Positions 1 to 7,466 of a stretch of DNA of 11,763 nt are shown here, one piece after another; the first letter of the stretch is position 1, and each line of letters begins with the position of its first letter. Source of the DNA: a virus (Duplodnaviria; Heunggongvirae; Uroviricota; Caudoviricetes). The translations under genes were made by a program, and so were the position numbers. The stretch is from positions 1 through 11,763 of the IMG/VR virus record IMGVR_UViG_2700989507_000007. One strand, given 5' to 3'. The notes below the pieces were generated by a model. The model was not told the DNA's origin. It ran no database searches and saw only the letters and a program-made list of their open reading frames with translations.

Positions 1-170
1 ATGAGCTGATTTTTCCGTCCCTTCGCAGGGCAAACCTGGCGCTGCGCAGGGCGAAAAGTGATGTTCAGAAGTGGGAGCGAGTCTGCGCCGCGCTGCGGGA
101 GCTGAACAAGCACCGGGATATTGTTCGGCAGATTGTCGATTCATCCGGTCGTATTGTGTCGGAAAAGTGA
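1..170 (+). CDS. 3' end of an ORF that starts left of the window (hypothetical phage protein, last ~55 aa)
   Basis: Frame in phase with position 3 stays open to TGA at 168-170; tail translates ...RELNKHRDIVRQIVDSSGRIVSEK. Start is outside the window; family not recognised. Confidence 0.3.
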   Translation, partial: ELIFPSLRRANLALRRAKSDVQKWERVCAALRELNKHRDIVRQIVDSSGRIVSEK

Positions 171-185
171 TTGCCGGAGGCGCTT

Positions 186-578
186 ATGGCAAAAGTATTT
201 ACACCAGAAGAGCGGGAAGAAGTGAAGGCGCGCATTGTGGAATTCGTGCGCCTGAGCGGACGAGAAACTTTTCGACAACTGGCAGATAAAACGGGTGTCA
301 GTAAGACCGCTATTCGTCGTTTATCTGGTGCGCTTGCGGCCAGTGGTGATGTCTGGCTCTCTGGTTGCGGGGTATTTCTATCAGAGCAGGCGTATCGCGT
401 ATGGCGCAAGACACCGGAGAAGGCTGCTGACCCGACACTGATTCGAAAGTTACCTGACGGAGAAATACGTCGTTACAACAGACGGCAGAACATAATTTGT
501 CGTGAGTGCCGCCAGAGCGAAGTTATGCAGCGTGTGCTGGCGTTCTATCGGGGTAATTTTCAGGAGGTGATGGAGTGA
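186..578 (+). CDS. hypothetical phage protein with an HTH-like segment (LADKTGVSKTAIRRL)
   Basis: Track ORF 171..578; preferred start is ATG 186 with GGAGG at 176-180. Stop TGA 576-578 overlaps the next gene's GTG start (GTGA coupling). Confidence 0.55.
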   Translation: MAKVFTPEEREEVKARIVEFVRLSGRETFRQLADKTGVSKTAIRRLSGALAASGDVWLSGCGVFLSEQAYRVWRKTPEKAADPTLIRKLPDGEIRRYNRRQNIICRECRQSEVMQRVLAFYRGNFQEVME

Positions 579-874
579 GGGTGAGGGTTTATATCGCCGG
601 TCCGATGACCGGGTATAAAAATTTCAACCGTGAGGCGTTCAACAAGGCGGAAGAGGAACTGAAACGGGAAGGGCATACAGTCTTAAACCCGGCAGTACTT
701 CCGGACGGGCTGACACAGCCGCACTACATGGATATTTGCATGTCAATGATACGCTGCGTGGATGCGATTTACATGCTGAAAGGCTGGCAGCGGTCGGCAG
801 GCGCTAAGGCAGAACTGGCACTGGCGGAGAAGCTGGGGCATGCAGTTATTTTCCAGGAGGCAAACAGTGAGTAA
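575..874 (+). CDS. DUF4406-like protein (nucleoside 2-deoxyribosyltransferase-like fold), 99 aa
   Basis: Track ORF 575..874; N-terminal VYIAGPMTG motif typical of this family; AGGAGG-like site at 562-567 before GTG 575. Family name is from memory. Confidence 0.55.
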   Translation: MRVRVYIAGPMTGYKNFNREAFNKAEEELKREGHTVLNPAVLPDGLTQPHYMDICMSMIRCVDAIYMLKGWQRSAGAKAELALAEKLGHAVIFQEANSE

Positions 875-1331
875 CCAATGGCGACCAGATATTTGCCCAA
901 TAACCGGACGTGCATTTTTCATGTGGATTGAGCATCCGAAATTGGGAAATGTACCGACGTATGGTGGCCCATTAGACAGTTACACCATTCCAACAAAGGA
1001 CAGCGATGGTGAGTTTTCGTGTGAGCGTTACGATCATGATTTCGGTGGCTGGGTAGAAAGCGAATGTCTAGGGTTATATCTGATTGATGATGAAGAACAA
1101 TGCAGAGTCTACGAACTCAAGGAGCGCGTTAAAGAGCTGGAAGCGCGGGAAGTTCATTTACCGACTCGCTACGGCCTTCGATATGGACATCCGATAAATG
1201 CTGATGAGCGCCACGTCATGATACCTAAAGAAAATGGCTGCTGGATTTATCTGGCTGATTTAGAGCACGTACTACGTGTTGCTGGTATTCGCATCAAAGG
1301 GGAGGAGCATGGAAATCAAACCAGAAGATGA
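867..1331 (+). CDS. hypothetical phage protein (~154 aa), ends ...AGIRIKGEEHGNQTRR
   Basis: Track ORF 840..1331; preferred start GTG 867 with AGGAGG at 855-860 (6-nt spacer), just before the upstream stop at 872-874. Confidence 0.5.
   Translation: MSNQWRPDICPITGRAFFMWIEHPKLGNVPTYGGPLDSYTIPTKDSDGEFSCERYDHDFGGWVESECLGLYLIDDEEQCRVYELKERVKELEAREVHLPTRYGLRYGHPINADERHVMIPKENGCWIYLADLEHVLRVAGIRIKGEEHGNQTRR
1281..1300 (+). repeat. gene-boundary repeat copy 1 (GCTGGTATTCGCATCAAAGG)
   Basis: 19/20 nt identical to 4341-4360; both sit at the 3' end of a gene encoding ...AGIRIKGE, just before the next gene's ATG. Confidence 0.6.
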
Positions 1332-1665
1332 GTTAAGTAATATTGTTTTATTTCCGGTAAAAGAGGATGACCCACGTAATCAGGTTAATTTTCTTTATGA
1401 GCCATCGGAAAGACCATATTGTCATCACGCCTCTGTCCGGGTTGACGAAAAAGAGCGTCAGGTCCGTTGTAAAATCTGCGGTGCAGTTGTGGAGACGTTT
1501 GACTGGATGCTCTCTGTGGCAAAAAGAGAAACCAGACTGGCAGATGATGTAAGGCTCTTGCGCCAGGAGGAGCGGGAAAGGCGAAAAAATATAGAAAAGC
1601 TAATTCAGATTGAGCGTAACGCGAAAGCGCGGATACGCAGGGCGACAAAATCCAGAACTGAATAA
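1309..1665 (+). CDS. hypothetical phage protein with a putative zinc-ribbon (C-H-H ... C-x-x-C) and a basic coiled-coil tail, 118 aa
   Basis: Track ORF 1276..1665; ATG 1309 preceded by a purine-rich AAAGGGGAGGAGC; overlaps the 3' end of the upstream gene. Confidence 0.5.
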   Translation: MEIKPEDELSNIVLFPVKEDDPRNQVNFLYEPSERPYCHHASVRVDEKERQVRCKICGAVVETFDWMLSVAKRETRLADDVRLLRQEERERRKNIEKLIQIERNAKARIRRATKSRTE

Positions 1666-1734
1666 TTAAATTTAGCTCTGTTAAAAATTTAATCCTTAAC
1701 CGGAGGGATTTCTGCACCCTCAGAACATCAGGAG

Positions 1735-1752
1735 GCCGCCCGAAAGGGCGGT
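1735..1752 (+). promoter_or_regulatory. GC-rich hairpin (GCCGCCC-GAAA-GGGCGGT, GNRA-type loop) between a Shine-Dalgarno-like site and the start codon of the next small ORF
   Basis: 7-bp stem with one G-U pair seen directly; CAGGAGG at 1729-1735 and ATG at 1759. Folding would bring the SD to ~6 nt from the ATG. Confidence 0.35.
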
Positions 1753-1758
1753 AGTTAA

Positions 1759-1932
1759 ATGCGAAAGTTTAAAATAATTATTGAAACGGGAATAGCCGGT
1801 GGAGATTTCGAGGATGAATTCGAAGTGGATGATGATGCGACGCCTGATGAAATACATGACGAAGCAAAAGATATTTTCTTTAACTACTGCAATTACTCAT
1901 ATCACGAAATAAAAGACGAAGAGGAGGAATAA
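1759..1932 (+). CDS. small very acidic protein, 57 aa (MRKFKIIIETGIAGGDFEDEFEVDDD...KDEEEE), ~20 D/E residues
   Basis: Not in the track (<60 aa). ATG 1759, TAA 1930-1932; the next ORF starts 2 nt later behind a GAGGAGG site. Confidence 0.4.
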   Translation: MRKFKIIIETGIAGGDFEDEFEVDDDATPDEIHDEAKDIFFNYCNYSYHEIKDEEEE

Positions 1933-1933
1933 A

Positions 1934-2110
1934 ATGGCTGATTTTGGTTCAACTAAATACAGCGTCAGTTTTGAAGAATGGCATGAACTGTTAATGGACT
2001 ATGCAGAGTTACGTGGTGGCAGTGCTGCTGATGCTGAAGCATGGCGTGATGATTATGAAGCAGGGAAAACTGCGGTCGAAGCATATTGTGATGAGTGGGG
2101 CGATGAATGA
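1934..2110 (+). CDS. small acidic protein, 58 aa (MADFGSTKYSVSFEEWHELLMDYAELRGG...CDEWGDE)
   Basis: Not in the track. ATG 1934 with GAGGAGG at 1921-1927; stop TGA 2108-2110 overlaps ATG 2107 of the next gene (ATGA coupling). Confidence 0.4.
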   Translation: MADFGSTKYSVSFEEWHELLMDYAELRGGSAADAEAWRDDYEAGKTAVEAYCDEWGDE

Positions 2111-2395
2111 GCGAGATTGACTATCAGGCGCTGCGTGAAGCAGCAGAGAAAGCAACTAAAGGATGCTACATCGTAGGGCATACATCGGGCAATCAGCATG
2201 GGAATATAACAGGAGTTTTTGTTTGTCAAAAATGGAAAGGAGAACCCGGTGGCGTGATTGCAGAATGTCATGTTAACTGCCTGGTTGAAACAGATGCTCA
2301 GGCTTACGCAAACGCTGAATTTATTGCTGCCTTTAATCCAAATGTTGCGCTGGCGCTTCTGGATGAACGGGAAAGAAACCAGCAATACATCAAAC
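2107..2395 (+). pseudogene. 5' fragment of an Ead/Ea22-like phage gene, interrupted by the IS element after codon ...YIK
   Basis: Track ORF 2107..2463 runs into the IS and ends on IS-derived codons; N-terminus MSEIDYQALREAAEKATKG resembles Ead/Ea22-like proteins (from memory). Confidence 0.55.
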
Positions 2396-2437
2396 TGAAC
2401 CGCCCCGGTTTTCCTGGAGAGTGTTTTATCTGTGAAC

Positions 2438-3325
2438 TCAGGCTGCCAGATCATCGTTTCTGATGGAAGCATAATAAGCTTTTTCTGCTTCTGCCGGAGG
2501 GATATGACCCAGCCTTCCCAGCAATCGTCGATTGTTATACCAGTCCACCCACGTGAGTGTGGCCAGTTCCACTTCTGCACGGTTTTTCCAGCTCTTACGG
2601 TGTATTACCTCCGCTTTGTAAAGACCATTGATGCTCTCCGCCATCGCGTTGTCATACGAGTCACCTGTACTCCCTGTTGATGCCAGCAGTTTTGCTTCTT
2701 TTAGTCGCTCCGTATAGGCCAGTGATACATACTGAGAACCTTTATCACTGTGATGGACTGTGCCGGACGGCCGACGGGCCCACAACGCCTGCTCCAGTGC
2801 ATCCAGCACGAATGTCGTTTCCATAGACGATGAGACTCGCCACCCCACGATACATCCGGCAAACACATCAATGATGAACGCCACATAGACGAAGCCCTGC
2901 CATGTGCTGACGTAAGTAAAATCAGCCACCCACAGCTGGTCAGGACGTTCTGCCACGAACTGACGGTTTACGCGGTCGCCTGCGGAAACGGCTTTCCGGC
3001 TGACGGTAGTACGGACCTTTTTACCCCGGAGAACACCGGCAAGTCCCATAACCGCCATGAGGCGCGCCACTGTACATCTGGCCACCCTGATACCTTCGCG
3101 TAACAACTGGCGCCAGACTTTACGCACACCGTACACCTGATGATTTTCATCGTATACGCGCTGTATCTCTCTCTTCAGCCAGTCATCGCGCTGAGCACGG
3201 GCACTGCGTTTATCAGGATGATGTCGCTGTTGCTGACAGTGGTAATACGTTGACGGGGCAATATGCAGTTCACTGCATACCGGTCCGACCCCGTACTGCT
3301 CACGCAGCTTATCCAGCAGCGGCAT
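2438..3325 (-). CDS. IS3-family transposase OrfB (catalytic domain), 295 aa
   Basis: Track ORF 2438..3325 (-); its ATG overlaps the orfA stop in the -1 frame, the classic IS3 orfAB arrangement. Confidence 0.85.
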   Translation of the reverse strand: MPLLDKLREQYGVGPVCSELHIAPSTYYHCQQQRHHPDKRSARAQRDDWLKREIQRVYDENHQVYGVRKVWRQLLREGIRVARCTVARLMAVMGLAGVLRGKKVRTTVSRKAVSAGDRVNRQFVAERPDQLWVADFTYVSTWQGFVYVAFIIDVFAGCIVGWRVSSSMETTFVLDALEQALWARRPSGTVHHSDKGSQYVSLAYTERLKEAKLLASTGSTGDSYDNAMAESINGLYKAEVIHRKSWKNRAEVELATLTWVDWYNNRRLLGRLGHIPPAEAEKAYYASIRNDDLAA

Positions 3326-3651
3326 TATTTTTTCCAGAGGCGGTCGAACTCCGCCTTCGCAAAATAAGCGGAAGCCTGGCGAAGGATATCGTTACTGCGG
3401 CGCAGTTCACGATTTTCACGTTCCAGCTCTTTCAGACGCTGACGTTCAGCGGTGGTGAGTCCACCATCACCACTCCCGGTATCCCGCTCATGCTGACGAA
3501 CCCACACACGCAGAGTCTCTGGTGTACAGCCAATCTTTGGGGCAATGGAACAAATTGCCGCCCATTGTGAGTCATATTCGCCCTGACTTTCCAGAACCAT
3601 ACGAACTGCCCGTTGACGGACCTCGGGGGAAAAACGTGTATTTTTAGTCAT
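3325..3651 (-). CDS. IS3-family transposase OrfA (HTH plus leucine-zipper part), 108 aa
   Basis: Track ORF 3325..3651 (-), [19 protein letters not shown]...; ends at an A6 slippery run (plus-strand T6 at 3328-3333) where the -1 frameshift into orfB is expected. Confidence 0.85.
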
Positions 3652-3705
3652 CCTGTTTACCTCTTTCTCAGGGAGTTTAGTCTCCAGGATTCCCGGGGCG
3701 GTTCA

Positions 3706-4367
3706 AACGCCGCGACCAGGAGAACGAGGATATTGCGCTAACGGTAGGGAAGCTGCGCGTTGAGCTTGAAGCAGCAAAATCAAAACTCAACGAGCAGCGT
3801 GAATATTACGAGGGAGTAATCGCGGATGGAAGTAAGCGCATAGCAGAACTGGAAAAACAATGCGCCGAATGGGAGCGAAAAGCATTAAGCAACTTTGAAG
3901 AGTGTGCTGCGATGGCTGAACGTATCGAAGAGATGCAGACAAAATCTGCACCAGATTCGTTTGGCATCATCGGTGAAAATATTCGAACACAGGACAATCG
4001 AATAACGTCAGATCCCATGTTTTGTGTGTATCAAAAGCGCGAAATCGTTGTTGATGCTGATTATGACCATGACCGGATTGTCTGGGTTGACGAAGATGGC
4101 AATGAAGCCAATAAACGCCATAGTCGTCGTCTCGAGCTACTTCATGAAAACTTTCGAGAGCCACCAGAAAAATGGCGGCGCGTTGCTGTGAAAGATATTG
4201 ATGAATTCGTTACCTGCTGTTTCACCGAACAGGGTTGTAAAGACTACCTGGCAGTCAATGGTCACAATCTTCGCTTGCCATTTATATATGTAAAAAGCGG
4301 TTTCAGGAACGCTGAATATATCGGCATAAGAAACTGGCTTGCTGGCATTCGCATCAAAGGAGAGTGA
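3706..4367 (+). pseudogene. 3' part of the IS-interrupted Ead/Ea22-like gene
   Basis: Frame is open from the IS junction (codons in phase with 3708) through track ORF 3912..4367, checked codon by codon. Removing the IS and one AAC copy joins 2107-2395 to this in frame (~316 aa). Coiled-coil middle; ends ...NWLAGIRIKGE. Confidence 0.55.
4341..4360 (+). repeat. gene-boundary repeat copy 2 (GCTGGCATTCGCATCAAAGG)
   Basis: See copy 1; followed by ATG 4369. Confidence 0.6.
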
Positions 4368-4368
4368 T

Positions 4369-4884
4369 ATGGCGTTAACACACCGCGAACTCTGTCAGAT
4401 TGCGTACAAGTTCCTTAAGCGCAACGGGTTCAAGGTTTGTTTTCATGACCGCTTTATAGCTGTAACCAGTACCGGAGAACAGCCAGATGCTATGGGATTC
4501 AGAAATTCAGCATCATGCCTGATAGAGGCGAAATGTTCTCGTGCTGACTTGTTGGCAGATAGAAAAAAGCGTTTTCGTAAAAATCCGTCTCTTGGAATGG
4601 GCGACTGGCGATTCTTTATTAGTGAGCCGGGAATTATTTCAATTGAGGATTTACCACCTGGCTGGGGATTACTTCACGTTGTTAACGGAAGAGTACGGAA
4701 AGTACATGGGTGGCCCAAGGGTAATTGCTGTTGGGGTAATCCTGACGATAAGCCATTTACTGGAAATAAGCAGGTTGAATGCGATTACATGTTGTCTGCA
4801 TTAAGGCGCATGGAGTTGAGAGGGCACCTTAATGAAATATATGACGGTGTAATTGTTAATAAGAAAGAAGGAAACGCGGCATGA
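4369..4884 (+). CDS. hypothetical phage protein, 171 aa; possible PD-(D/E)XK nuclease fold
   Basis: Track ORF 4339..4884; preferred ATG 4369 with GGAG upstream. Motif GEQPD-x13-EAK seen in the translation. Confidence 0.5.
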
Positions 4885-5225
4885 CCACTATTACCAGAGA
4901 GCAGTTAATAGCTCACGCAGAGGAGACTATTGAAGCACAGAGACTGTGTATACCGGGCACAATCGACCATGACATCATCCGCACATATAAGATGGATATT
5001 GCTGTTCTGGAAATCGCACTGGCATCGCTGGCAGCAGAGCCAGCCGGTAAATTGCATGAATACAAACCAGTGGGGTATCAGCGTCTGGTCGACGAGTTAA
5101 CTATGCAGGTAAAGCAGTTAGCCTGGCAACTGAGGAAAGCGAAGCCGGACTGCAAACTGCCGGATAAGGCGATGGACTACCTGGAGCGAAACGGACTGAC
5201 AAGCGTGGAGGATGTTTTACGATGA
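4881..5225 (+). CDS. hypothetical phage protein, 114 aa
   Basis: Track ORF 4881..5225; ATG overlaps the upstream stop (ATGA). Confidence 0.5.
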
Positions 5226-5305
5226 CCAGGCCTGAAGCATTCACAACGGTAGGAATTGCGATGGCGGTGGCGCTGGTGGTGTATTCGATTTGCCGCTGGG
5301 GATAA
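5222..5305 (+). CDS. possible small hydrophobic peptide, 27 aa ([27 protein letters not shown])
   Basis: Not in the track. ATG 5222 overlaps the upstream stop; one predicted membrane-spanning stretch. Weak support. Confidence 0.2.
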
Positions 5306-5315
5306 ATCGCCGAAA

Positions 5316-5349
5316 AAAGATCCCGACACAAACATGAGCCGGGATCTTT
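5316..5349. terminator. bidirectional rho-independent terminator between convergent transcription units
   Basis: 10-bp perfect stem AAAGATCCCG / CGGGATCTTT with a 14-nt loop; A-run upstream and T-rich tract downstream, so it carries a U-tract on either strand. Confidence 0.55.
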
Positions 5350-5432
5350 GATTTATATAGCCTACGAATCCGCCAGTAAGAGAGGGGGGGGCGGACGGTT
5401 AATTCTAACACCGGAATGATGTGGGTAAAAGT

Positions 5433-5732
5433 TTATAAGAAATCGGTTTCATAACTTTGCCCACCATGATAGATACCGACAATAAAGACTTTTCTGCCAT
5501 CAACGGCAAAAGCAATAATCGTTCTGTGGCGGAAATGAGTTACCCGCATCCCCTGGCGAATATCATCGCGTTTATTGCCCCGATGCGGGAATGTAGAAAA
5601 CCCATCAAGATAATCAAGAAGCGCATTGGCAAAATTGTCAGCAATGACGTTCCCTGCTTTCTCCGTTATATATCTGTGCAGGTTGATTATTTGTTCTTCG
5701 GCCTCAGGAGTAATGATGACTTCATATGTCAT
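5433..5732 (-). CDS. parE: ParE/RelE-family type II toxin, 99 aa
   Basis: Track ORF 5433..5732 (-); size and sequence character of ParE-like toxins; directly downstream of an RHH antitoxin gene on the same strand. Confidence 0.75.
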   Translation of the reverse strand: MTYEVIITPEAEEQIINLHRYITEKAGNVIADNFANALLDYLDGFSTFPHRGNKRDDIRQGMRVTHFRHRTIIAFAVDGRKVFIVGIYHGGQSYETDFL

Positions 5733-5737
5733 GCAGA

Positions 5738-5995
5738 TTACTTCCCGGATCGAATCGCGGCGCGAACCTGTGAAATGGAGCGTCCGTTGTTTGGGTTTTC
5801 GCGGATAGAATCAAGAGAGGGGGCGGCTGAATGCGTTAACCACGCTTCGATTGCTTTATCGCGCTCATTCAGTGCGCGAAGCCCTTCACGAATGACCTCG
5901 CTTTCTGAAGCATAGGCACCGGAAGCCACACGGGCGCGCACCATGTCAGCCATTTCGTTAGTTAATGTAATGCTGAATTGTTGGGTTGTACGCAT
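5738..5995 (-). CDS. parD: ParD-type (ribbon-helix-helix) antitoxin, ~85 aa
   Basis: Inside track ORF 5738..6058 (-); preferred start is the internal ATG (reverse complement of 5993-5995) with GAGG 6 nt upstream. Contains ASESEVIREGLRAL, typical of ParD/CopG antitoxins. Stop lies 5 nt before the parE start. Confidence 0.7.
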   Translation of the reverse strand: MRTTQQFSITLTNEMADMVRARVASGAYASESEVIREGLRALNERDKAIEAWLTHSAAPSLDSIRENPNNGRSISQVRAAIRSGK

Positions 5996-6130
5996 GGTAA
6001 ACCTCACGGAGTAGGATAGAACACCATTCGATGATAGCACGTTGCCTGTTGACGACAACAGAAATCAGAGACAATATTGCCGCACGCCAGCTTGAACAAC
6101 TGGCACCTGCTGCGCCAGCAGAGAAAACCG

Positions 6131-6403
6131 ATGGCGCACAATACCAAACATCACAATTCTGATATCGCCCCTGCCAGCAGGCAAGGGCGGTGTTCTCACA
6201 CATTCAAATATGACTGGTATCAGCACGATCCCTGCACTGAAGAACAGGCCGAATGGCTGATTCATAACTACCGCAGACGTGGGTATGAGTTTAAGAAAGC
6301 CCTTAGCCTCGACTACCGTCACTGGATAATCTACGTCAGGCTCCTTTATTCCGAACGCCCGCCGCGTCCGTCCCGCACATTCCAGCAACGCATCTGGAGG
6401 TAA
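6131..6403 (+). CDS. hypothetical protein, ~90 aa
   Basis: Inside track ORF 6077..6403; ends immediately before the DUF968 gene start. Weak RBS; coding status uncertain. Confidence 0.3.
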   Translation: MAHNTKHHNSDIAPASRQGRCSHTFKYDWYQHDPCTEEQAEWLIHNYRRRGYEFKKALSLDYRHWIIYVRLLYSERPPRPSRTFQQRIWR

Positions 6404-6404
6404 C

Positions 6405-7454
6405 GTGCGGGTATTACTTCGACCTGTTCTGGTACCGGAACTCGGGCTGGTGATCGTTAAGCCGGGCCGTGAATCCATGCCGGTATTCCACAATACCCGG
6501 GTACTGGTGGAGCCGGAACCGAAAAGCATGCGTAATCTGCCGTCCGGCATCGTCCCTGCCGTTCGCCAGCCGCTAGTGGAAGACAAAACATTGCTGCCGT
6601 TTTTCAGTAACGCTCGGGTGATTCGTGCTGCTGGTGGCGCTGGCGCATTGTCTGACTGGTTACTGCGCCATGTTAAATCCTGCCAGTGGCCACACGGCGA
6701 TTATCATCACAGTGAAACCGTTATTCACCGTTATGGTACCGGCGCAATGGTGTTGTGCTGGCACTGCGACAACCAGCTGCGTGACCAGACATCCGAATCA
6801 CTCGAGCAACTTGCTCATCAAAACCTGTCAGCATGGATGATTGACGTCATCGGTCACGCAATATGCGGTACGCAGGAGCGTGAATTATCTCTGGCTGAAT
6901 TATCCTGGTGGGCGGTCCGCAATCAGGTGGCGGACGCGCTACCGGAAGCGGTATTACGTCGTTCGCTGGGGTTGCGTGCGGAAAAAATCCGCTCAGTGTA
7001 CCGTGAAAGCGACATCGTACCGGGAGAGCAGACCGCCACCAGCATACTGAAGCAGCGCACAAAAAATATTGCGCTACCGCCTCACACCCACCAGCAACAG
7101 AACCCACCACAGGAAAAGACGGTGGTCAGCATTGCCGTTGATCCGGAGTCTCCGGAATCCTTCATGAAACGACCTAAACGTCGCCGCTGGGTAAATGAGA
7201 AATACACACGCTGGGTAAAGACACAGCCGTGTGCGTGTTGTGGTAAGCCAGCGGACGATCCTCATCATCTGATTGGTCATGGTCAGGGTGGAATGGGAAC
7301 AAAATCCCACGATATTTTCACGCTACCGCTGTGTCGGGAGCATCACAACGAGCTTCATGCGGATCCGCTGGCGTTCGAAGAAAAGCATGGTTCCCAGGTT
7401 GATTTAATTTTTCGTTTTCTTGATCACGCCTTTGCGACTGGCGTGCTCGGGTAA
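6405..7454 (+). CDS. DUF968-family prophage protein (YdfU-like) with a C-terminal Cys/His HNH-like motif, 349 aa
   Basis: Track ORF 6405..7454; GTG start with GGAGG at 6396-6400. C-terminal CACCG...DDPHHLIGHG...CREHHNELH. Sits directly upstream of rusA, as in known prophages. Confidence 0.7.
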   Translation: MRVLLRPVLVPELGLVIVKPGRESMPVFHNTRVLVEPEPKSMRNLPSGIVPAVRQPLVEDKTLLPFFSNARVIRAAGGAGALSDWLLRHVKSCQWPHGDYHHSETVIHRYGTGAMVLCWHCDNQLRDQTSESLEQLAHQNLSAWMIDVIGHAICGTQERELSLAELSWWAVRNQVADALPEAVLRRSLGLRAEKIRSVYRESDIVPGEQTATSILKQRTKNIALPPHTHQQQNPPQEKTVVSIAVDPESPESFMKRPKRRRWVNEKYTRWVKTQPCACCGKPADDPHHLIGHGQGGMGTKSHDIFTLPLCREHHNELHADPLAFEEKHGSQVDLIFRFLDHAFATGVLG

Positions 7455-7466
7455 AAGAGGTGACTG

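Follow-up and report, generated by a model that had tools for sequence, protein, structure and literature searches.

A predicted MmcB-like nuclease of the PD-(D/E)XK fold encoded in the early region of a lambdoid prophage

The gene and its predicted active site

The 11,763-nucleotide stretch of the IMG/VR virus record IMGVR_UViG_2700989507_000007 analyzed here (positions 1 to 11,763; hereafter, the window) is a segment of a lambdoid prophage, and the subject of this report is a gene on its forward strand, at positions 4369–4884 with the stop codon included, which encodes a 171-residue MmcB-like protein of predicted PD-(D/E)XK fold. Translation of this interval yielded an intact frame of 171 codons and a stop. 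The ATG at 4369 is a well-supported start codon because, by direct reading of the sequence, a Shine-Dalgarno motif, AAGGAG (4357–4362, +), lies 6 nt before it and the stop codon of the preceding open reading frame (ORF) falls between the two, at 4365–4367. At the other end, the stop codon of the gene and the start codon of the next one in the ORF list, which encodes a 114-residue protein, share the tetranucleotide ATGA (4881–4884, +). The preceding stop codon and this overlap indicate that the gene is translationally coupled to both neighbors in an operon. A DNA-identical (100%) and equally intact 516-nt gene is present in NZ_CP027766.1 at 979579–980094 (L001, 9056–9571), where RefSeq marks only a 179-nt "frameshifted" hypothetical pseudogene, a label that looks like an annotation artifact.

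The initial annotation had proposed a candidate PD-(D/E)XK-fold nuclease from the letters of this ORF, and both the 171-residue ORF and its motif are present as described: P39-D40 is followed by E53-A54-K55 with a D-to-E spacing of 13, within residues 36–57. This active-site segment (4474–4539, +; G-E37-Q-P39-D40 ... E53-A-K55-C-S57) corresponds to a hairpin of β2 and β3 (strands 41–45 and 48–54), and profile alignments place it in register with D39/E53/K55 of 3dnx and MmcB. Taken alone, the motif is within chance, since the pattern PD-x(8-25)-[DE]xK also occurred in 53 (6%) of 898 unrelated neighboring phage ORFs of at least 100 residues, and omission of the proline raised the figure to 52% of the same ORFs. 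The annotation's description of itself as a motif-level inference only was, accordingly, a fair one, and it is conservation together with the predicted fold that lifts the PD...ExK assignment above chance.

Conservation of the putative catalytic residues is nearly complete down to approximately 35% identity. Among 267 aligned family members, E37 was found in 255 of 256 sequences, D40 in 257 of 258, E53 in 259 of 261 and K55 in 260 of 262. The D40/E53/K55 triad was invariant in close homologs (n = 34, 59–88% identity), and in distant ones (n = 45, 34–55% identity) D40 remained invariant with E37, E53 and K55 each conserved in at least 90%. Besides E37, a further conserved acidic position is residue 27, at the end of β1 (residues 23–26; 4435–4449, +, including the codon for residue 27), which is D or E in 245 of 247 members (D27 here, Glu in many relatives) and aligns with E28/E29 of MmcB proteins. 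The glutamate that the initial annotation had singled out as conserved-looking in the N-terminal helix did not hold up: it is E7, and only 138 of 224 members have Glu there, so that this residue is not a catalytic candidate, although H5 and L8 of the same helix are conserved (α1, residues 5–18; 4381–4422, +; DSSP on the model).

Near-invariance over the 267 members extends to D60, D64, K67, R70, G78, R81, W99-G100-L101, E137, R146 and R147. The first four of these belong to a near-invariant helix that follows the catalytic hairpin (R58-x-D60-x-x-x-D64-x-x-K67-x-x-R70; 4540–4578, +), whose motif, SRaDFlaDkkK-fR, is common to MmcB-family proteins and aligns with SRADFQAD of 3dnx. The family signatures G76-M-G78-D-W-R81-F in β4 and P96-x-G-W99-G100-L101-L in β5 (4594–4674, +) are partly matched in MmcB (D-R-Y-F and LP-x-x-GL), and the conserved E137, R146 and R147 fall in the C-terminal helices (residues 134–159, modeled as 134–150 and 154–159; 4768–4845, +).

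Predicted fold and relationship to MmcB

AlphaFold2, run on a family alignment designated A1, returned a model with a pLDDT of 81.4 and a pTM of 0.77, in which helices (H) and strands (E) follow in the order H5–18, E23–26, E41–45, E48–54, H58–65, E80–85, E100–105, E108–113 and H134–150. The core is α-β-β-β-α-β around a central mixed sheet, as in PD-(D/E)XK proteins, with D40 just before or at the start of β2 and E53-x-K55 at the end of β3; the central β-sheet nuclease core is thus present in the model and carries the conserved triad on β2 and β3. When the model was compared with the Protein Data Bank (PDB) by Foldseek, its structural neighbors were PD-(D/E)XK nucleases, headed by 3dnx, the only match below an E-value of 1e-3 (7.3e-6). 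This solved structure, a PF06319 "MmcB family DNA repair protein", agrees with the 171-residue model in overall structure. Several phage entries named "MmcB-like DNA repair protein" were likewise recovered from BFVD, a collection of predicted viral protein structures, with E-values of 5e-7 to 6e-4.

The sequence relatives of the protein had offered no name, as all 324 found in the first search were unnamed or "hypothetical". An exhaustive profile search extended the family to 3,392 clusters (at 50% identity) at E ≤ 1e-3, of which 2,452 remained at E ≤ 1e-10. When a diverse alignment of this family (A2) was compared by hhalign with an alignment of 25 PF06319 proteins (A3), the two were matched over 104 columns with a probability of 98.4% and an E-value of 6.5e-15, and a profile of distant members found the 3dnx sequence at an E-value of 7.6e-5 with the aspartate, the E-x-K and the S-R-a-D-F-x-a-D helix in register. 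Among 45 relatives, 11 gave weak matches to PF06319 (best E 2.9e-4) and 28 gave weak matches to PF01870 (Hjc), for instance 16.9–17.7 bits against a cut-off of 21.1. The window protein itself did not reach the Pfam gathering threshold of PF06319, and for PF01870 it gave no match at the gathering threshold or, in Pfam, at E ≤ 10. It had no NCBIfam match at E ≤ 0.01, no match in a single-sequence search of the PDB and no family at E ≤ 0.01 in a scan of PADLOC-DB; its PHROG families were 9263 and 631, both of "unknown function", together with a weak match to a PHROG named "DNA repair protein".

Considering conservation and the model together, we conclude that the protein has, by prediction, the PD-(D/E)XK fold together with an active site that is intact and conserved. 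Judged from sequence profiles, it is homologous to PF06319 even though the Pfam model of that family does not recognize it; inside the PD-(D/E)XK superfamily, its unnamed family stands to PF06319 as a remote sister. The original proposal is, as to the fold, borne out: neither outcome that the initial annotation had named as refuting it, a predicted fold lacking the nuclease core or a triad that varies among homologs, was seen. The nuclease activity that it also implied is what we infer from these results.

PF06319, formerly DUF1052 and also COG5321, is the MmcB-like family; it includes 3dnx (SPO1766 of Ruegeria pomeroyi) and MmcB of Caulobacter crescentus. It was placed in the PD-(D/E)XK superfamily near the archaeal junction resolvases (PMC1189080) and was tabulated with 3dnx in a later superfamily survey (PMC3424549). 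The window protein shares approximately 23–27% identity with MmcB-like proteins. While the latter were found mostly in α-proteobacteria in the 2005 and 2012 surveys (PMC1189080, PMC3424549), the family described here is borne by mobile elements, phages and prophages among them, chiefly of γ-proteobacteria, and the motifs GMGDWRF, GWGLL and E137/R146/R147 are specific to it. The core fold and the PD...ExK triad are shared as well with Type II restriction endonucleases (for example SdaI, NgoMIV, HindIII and the FokI cleavage domain), from which the window protein differs in being much smaller and in having neither a recognition domain nor a conserved cognate methyltransferase neighbor. A consistent domain fusion did not emerge: the longer members gave only one dATP/dGTP pyrophosphohydrolase (MazG-like; P0227, 243 residues) and one TniB-like ATPase domain (P0132, 428 residues), both possibly representing fusions or merged gene calls.

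Genomic context and distribution

In the complete Escherichia coli genomes closest to the window, the gene is preceded by replication genes, DUF1627, DUF977, DUF4406 and an Ea22-like gene, and is followed by ParDE, DUF968, RusA, a Q-like protein, a methyltransferase, tRNAs and lysis genes. Family scans of the window identified a 349-residue DUF968 protein with a weak HNH-nuclease signature (first gene of the interval 6405–8386, +), a RusA resolvase (7467–7826, +) and a DUF1133/Q-like antiterminator (7823–8386, +), so that, with the gene under study, the segment encodes three predicted nucleases. A 352-residue DNA methyltransferase, recognized by the PADLOC type II methyltransferase model (E 1e-158), is encoded at 8960–10018 (+) without an adjacent endonuclease; it lies beyond Q, 4 kb from our gene.

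In the Stx2 phage 1717 the gene is gp06 of the pL operon; it follows an Ea22-like gene and lies between gam-bet-exo on its upstream side and int on its downstream side. Across 80 viral loci the common neighbors, mostly on the same strand as the gene, were a CI-type repressor, O-like and DnaB replication proteins, NinB, NinG, DUF551, coiled-coil Ea22-like proteins and an integrase; no methyltransferase was among the common neighbor clusters of these loci, and none of their neighbors qualified as a conserved partner, the best cluster being present at 22 of the 80. A two-gene system with the downstream 114-residue protein was ruled out, as this neighbor is not conserved at other loci.

Relatives in virulent phages are found close to replication genes. 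In Ackermannviridae only a homing endonuclease gene separates the homolog from DNA primase, and in a Vibrio siphophage the homolog directly follows Pol I-like and helicase genes. The Ackermannviridae homologs (for example NC_019925.1, 57746–58057; L118, 4980–5594) match only over residues 4–113, at approximately 45% identity and within a 204-residue ORF, and thus have the catalytic half in common with the lambdoid version and a different C-terminal part.

The gene is widespread. Of 5,426 complete E. coli genomes, 931 carry it, and 250 of the places where it lies are on plasmids; it also occurs in 641 phage records, and almost everywhere its label is "hypothetical protein". Its hosts include Stx prophages of O157:H7 and P7-like phage-plasmids; the copy in phage P7 is named Upf89.0, a name of which we found no mention in the literature. 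A check of exo-xis papers confined to a few text terms, "nuclease" among them, found none of these. Beyond E. coli, a genome scan with alignment A1, which is biased towards close relatives, recorded 34 species, mostly γ-proteobacteria together with one α-proteobacterium and one Flavobacterium. For the five most distant copies, the neighboring ORFs resemble, by reading, genes of prophages or other mobile elements, and a Chromohalobacter prophage keeps the order of the window (replication, the gene, HNH, RusA). In Shewanella inventionis (L103, 1949–6401), the homolog lies between a 980-residue and a 301-residue protein, which read as a VirB4/TraC-like ATPase and a tyrosine-recombinase-like protein, respectively; such a setting would point away from a phage and towards a conjugative or integrative element.

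Proposed function and alternative explanations

We propose, with a probability of roughly 0.6, that the gene encodes a small DNA endonuclease, metal-dependent and specific for a structure or a lesion, with a part in the replication, recombination or repair of phage DNA. A repair or replication endonuclease is argued for by the intact conserved active site in the absence of a recognition domain and of a methyltransferase or immunity partner, by the nearest homology being to a repair nuclease family, and by the place of the gene in early operons beside replication and recombination genes of temperate and virulent phages alike. By analogy with the superfamily, the cutting of a phosphodiester bond in DNA would involve one or two divalent metal ions, held by D40 and E53 and probably also by E37 and D27, and a water molecule positioned for the attack by K55, while the conserved basic residues R58, K67, R70, R81, R146 and R147 may touch the DNA backbone. 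Because there are only 171 residues, no DNA-reading domain and no partner methyltransferase, recognition would most likely be of DNA structure or of a lesion rather than of a sequence, with a branched, stalled-fork or cross-linked intermediate as candidate substrates. Produced from early phage operons alongside replication and recombination functions, such an enzyme would probably aid phage DNA replication or repair.

A point of comparison is MmcB of C. crescentus, an SOS-regulated PD-(D/E)XK endonuclease that is required for resistance to mitomycin C and cisplatin, properties known for this MmcB only, and is hypothesized to work with translesion polymerases in cross-link repair (PMC9578287). 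Among the roles listed in the initial annotation, recombination or repair is the best fit, given the homology to a DNA-repair nuclease and the replication and recombination neighbors, whereas anti-defense and host-DNA targeting found no specific support. Several observations weigh against our proposal. In a direct scan the window protein matched no Pfam model at E ≤ 10, PF06319 included; the hhalign alignment to PF06319 reaches only the first ~118 residues and leaves the C-terminal third unaligned; and the neighborhood is a mosaic (Ea22-like, DUF551), which makes context only suggestive. Moreover, PD-(D/E)XK folds are also found in RNases, non-cleaving DNA-binding proteins and defense effectors. 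Finally, the literature cited here defines no substrate for MmcB, and the word "repair" is transferred from the genetics of one α-proteobacterium.

Considering the minimal PD-(D/E)XK core, the E/D...D...ExK layout and the small size that the protein shares with archaeal Hjc (PF01870), and its weak similarity to Hjc in sequence and structure, a dimeric Holliday-junction or branched-DNA resolvase that clears recombination or replication intermediates before packaging is conceivable. We regard it as doubtful, as the window already has RusA and at least 26 of 114 related loci have RusA or NinG no more than 6 kb away. Early expression, a place in moron-like mosaic accessory regions, carriage by many mobile elements (virulent phages included) and structural neighbors that include the CRISPR ancillary nucleases Can2/Card1 and restriction enzymes could together fit an offensive or counter-defense nuclease degrading host DNA, a competing element or the nucleic-acid part of a host defense. 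Such a weapon is, however, improbable here: the protein has no sensor, CARF or targeting domain and no PADLOC model match, no linked inhibitor or immunity gene that could shield phage DNA was found at the 80 viral loci, whatever the measure, the nearest relatives are MmcB proteins of the repair type rather than effectors, and presence in the replication modules of virulent phages further disfavors it.

Translational coupling within early lytic operons, on the pL or pR side and with no evident promoter of its own, makes it very unlikely that the gene encodes an exclusion or restriction nuclease, for instance a modification-dependent one, by which the prophage shields its lysogen from other phages. 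Defense genes are frequent in prophage accessory regions and a stand-alone nuclease with no methyltransferase would be reminiscent of type IV systems, but homologs occupy the replication modules of strictly virulent phages, PADLOC again gave no match and the 171 residues leave no recognizable domain for reading modified bases. The least probable alternative, to which we attach hardly any weight, is a non-catalytic DNA-binding or regulatory protein retaining only the fold. Catalysis has been lost in some PD-(D/E)XK-fold proteins, and adjacent genes of the exo-xis region affect the lysis-lysogeny decision; however, each catalytic position is kept in at least 99% of the 267 aligned members of this very diverse family, which argues for selection for catalysis.

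Returning to the MmcB-like endonuclease, the assignment supplies a testable function for an unnamed family of approximately 3,400 sequence clusters and adds a predicted enzyme to the poorly understood exo-xis and nin accessory regions of lambdoid phages. For a gene labeled "hypothetical" in hundreds of E. coli prophages this is a gain in annotation that is sound and would not surprise a specialist. The gene would be transcribed from early promoters of the phage, and SOS-dependent induction would set these off in a lysogen; mitomycin C is the classical inducer of Stx phages. A role in repair, if correct, would matter for the question of how prophages induced by DNA damage copy a damaged template. 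A more specific and quite speculative idea, which we consider rather unlikely as it stands, is that damage-induced temperate phages carry an MmcB-type nuclease of their own, made at the very start of the lytic cycle, to incise or unhook cross-links, and other lesions that block replication, in the template DNA of prophage or phage. Were this the case, phage yield and Shiga-toxin output after genotoxic induction would depend on the gene, the family would represent a branch, carried by mobile elements, of a bacterial pathway for interstrand-crosslink repair about which little is understood, and E. coli and its phages would offer an easy experimental handle on what MmcB-type nucleases cut.

Other features of the window

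Upstream of the gene, the block that follows the replication genes includes a 99-residue DUF4406 protein (575–874, +; family scan). An IS3-family insertion sequence of ~1.31 kb, which we take to be IS629-like, occupies positions 2396–3706 with the ends TGAACCGCCCCGG...CCGGGGCGGTTCA and is flanked by a 3-bp target duplication, AAC (2393–2395 and 3707–3709); its orfA (108 residues, 3325–3651) and orfB (295 residues, 2438–3325) lie on the reverse strand. The element interrupts an ead/Ea22-like gene, the N-terminal part of which is left in the ORF at 2107–2463 and the C-terminal part in the ORF at 3912–4367, corresponding to a 315-residue protein that is uninterrupted in related genomes.

Downstream, a ParE/RelE-family toxin (5433–5732) and a ParD-family antitoxin (5738–6058) are encoded on the reverse strand within the early operon region, and this pair is labeled a type II toxin-antitoxin system in related genomes. 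Beyond the methyltransferase, all on the forward strand, follow a tRNA-Met(CAT) (10059–10134), called tRNA-Ile by RefSeq, a tRNA-Arg(TCT) (10215–10291) and, after both tRNAs, a gene for a TerB-family protein (within 8960–10891).
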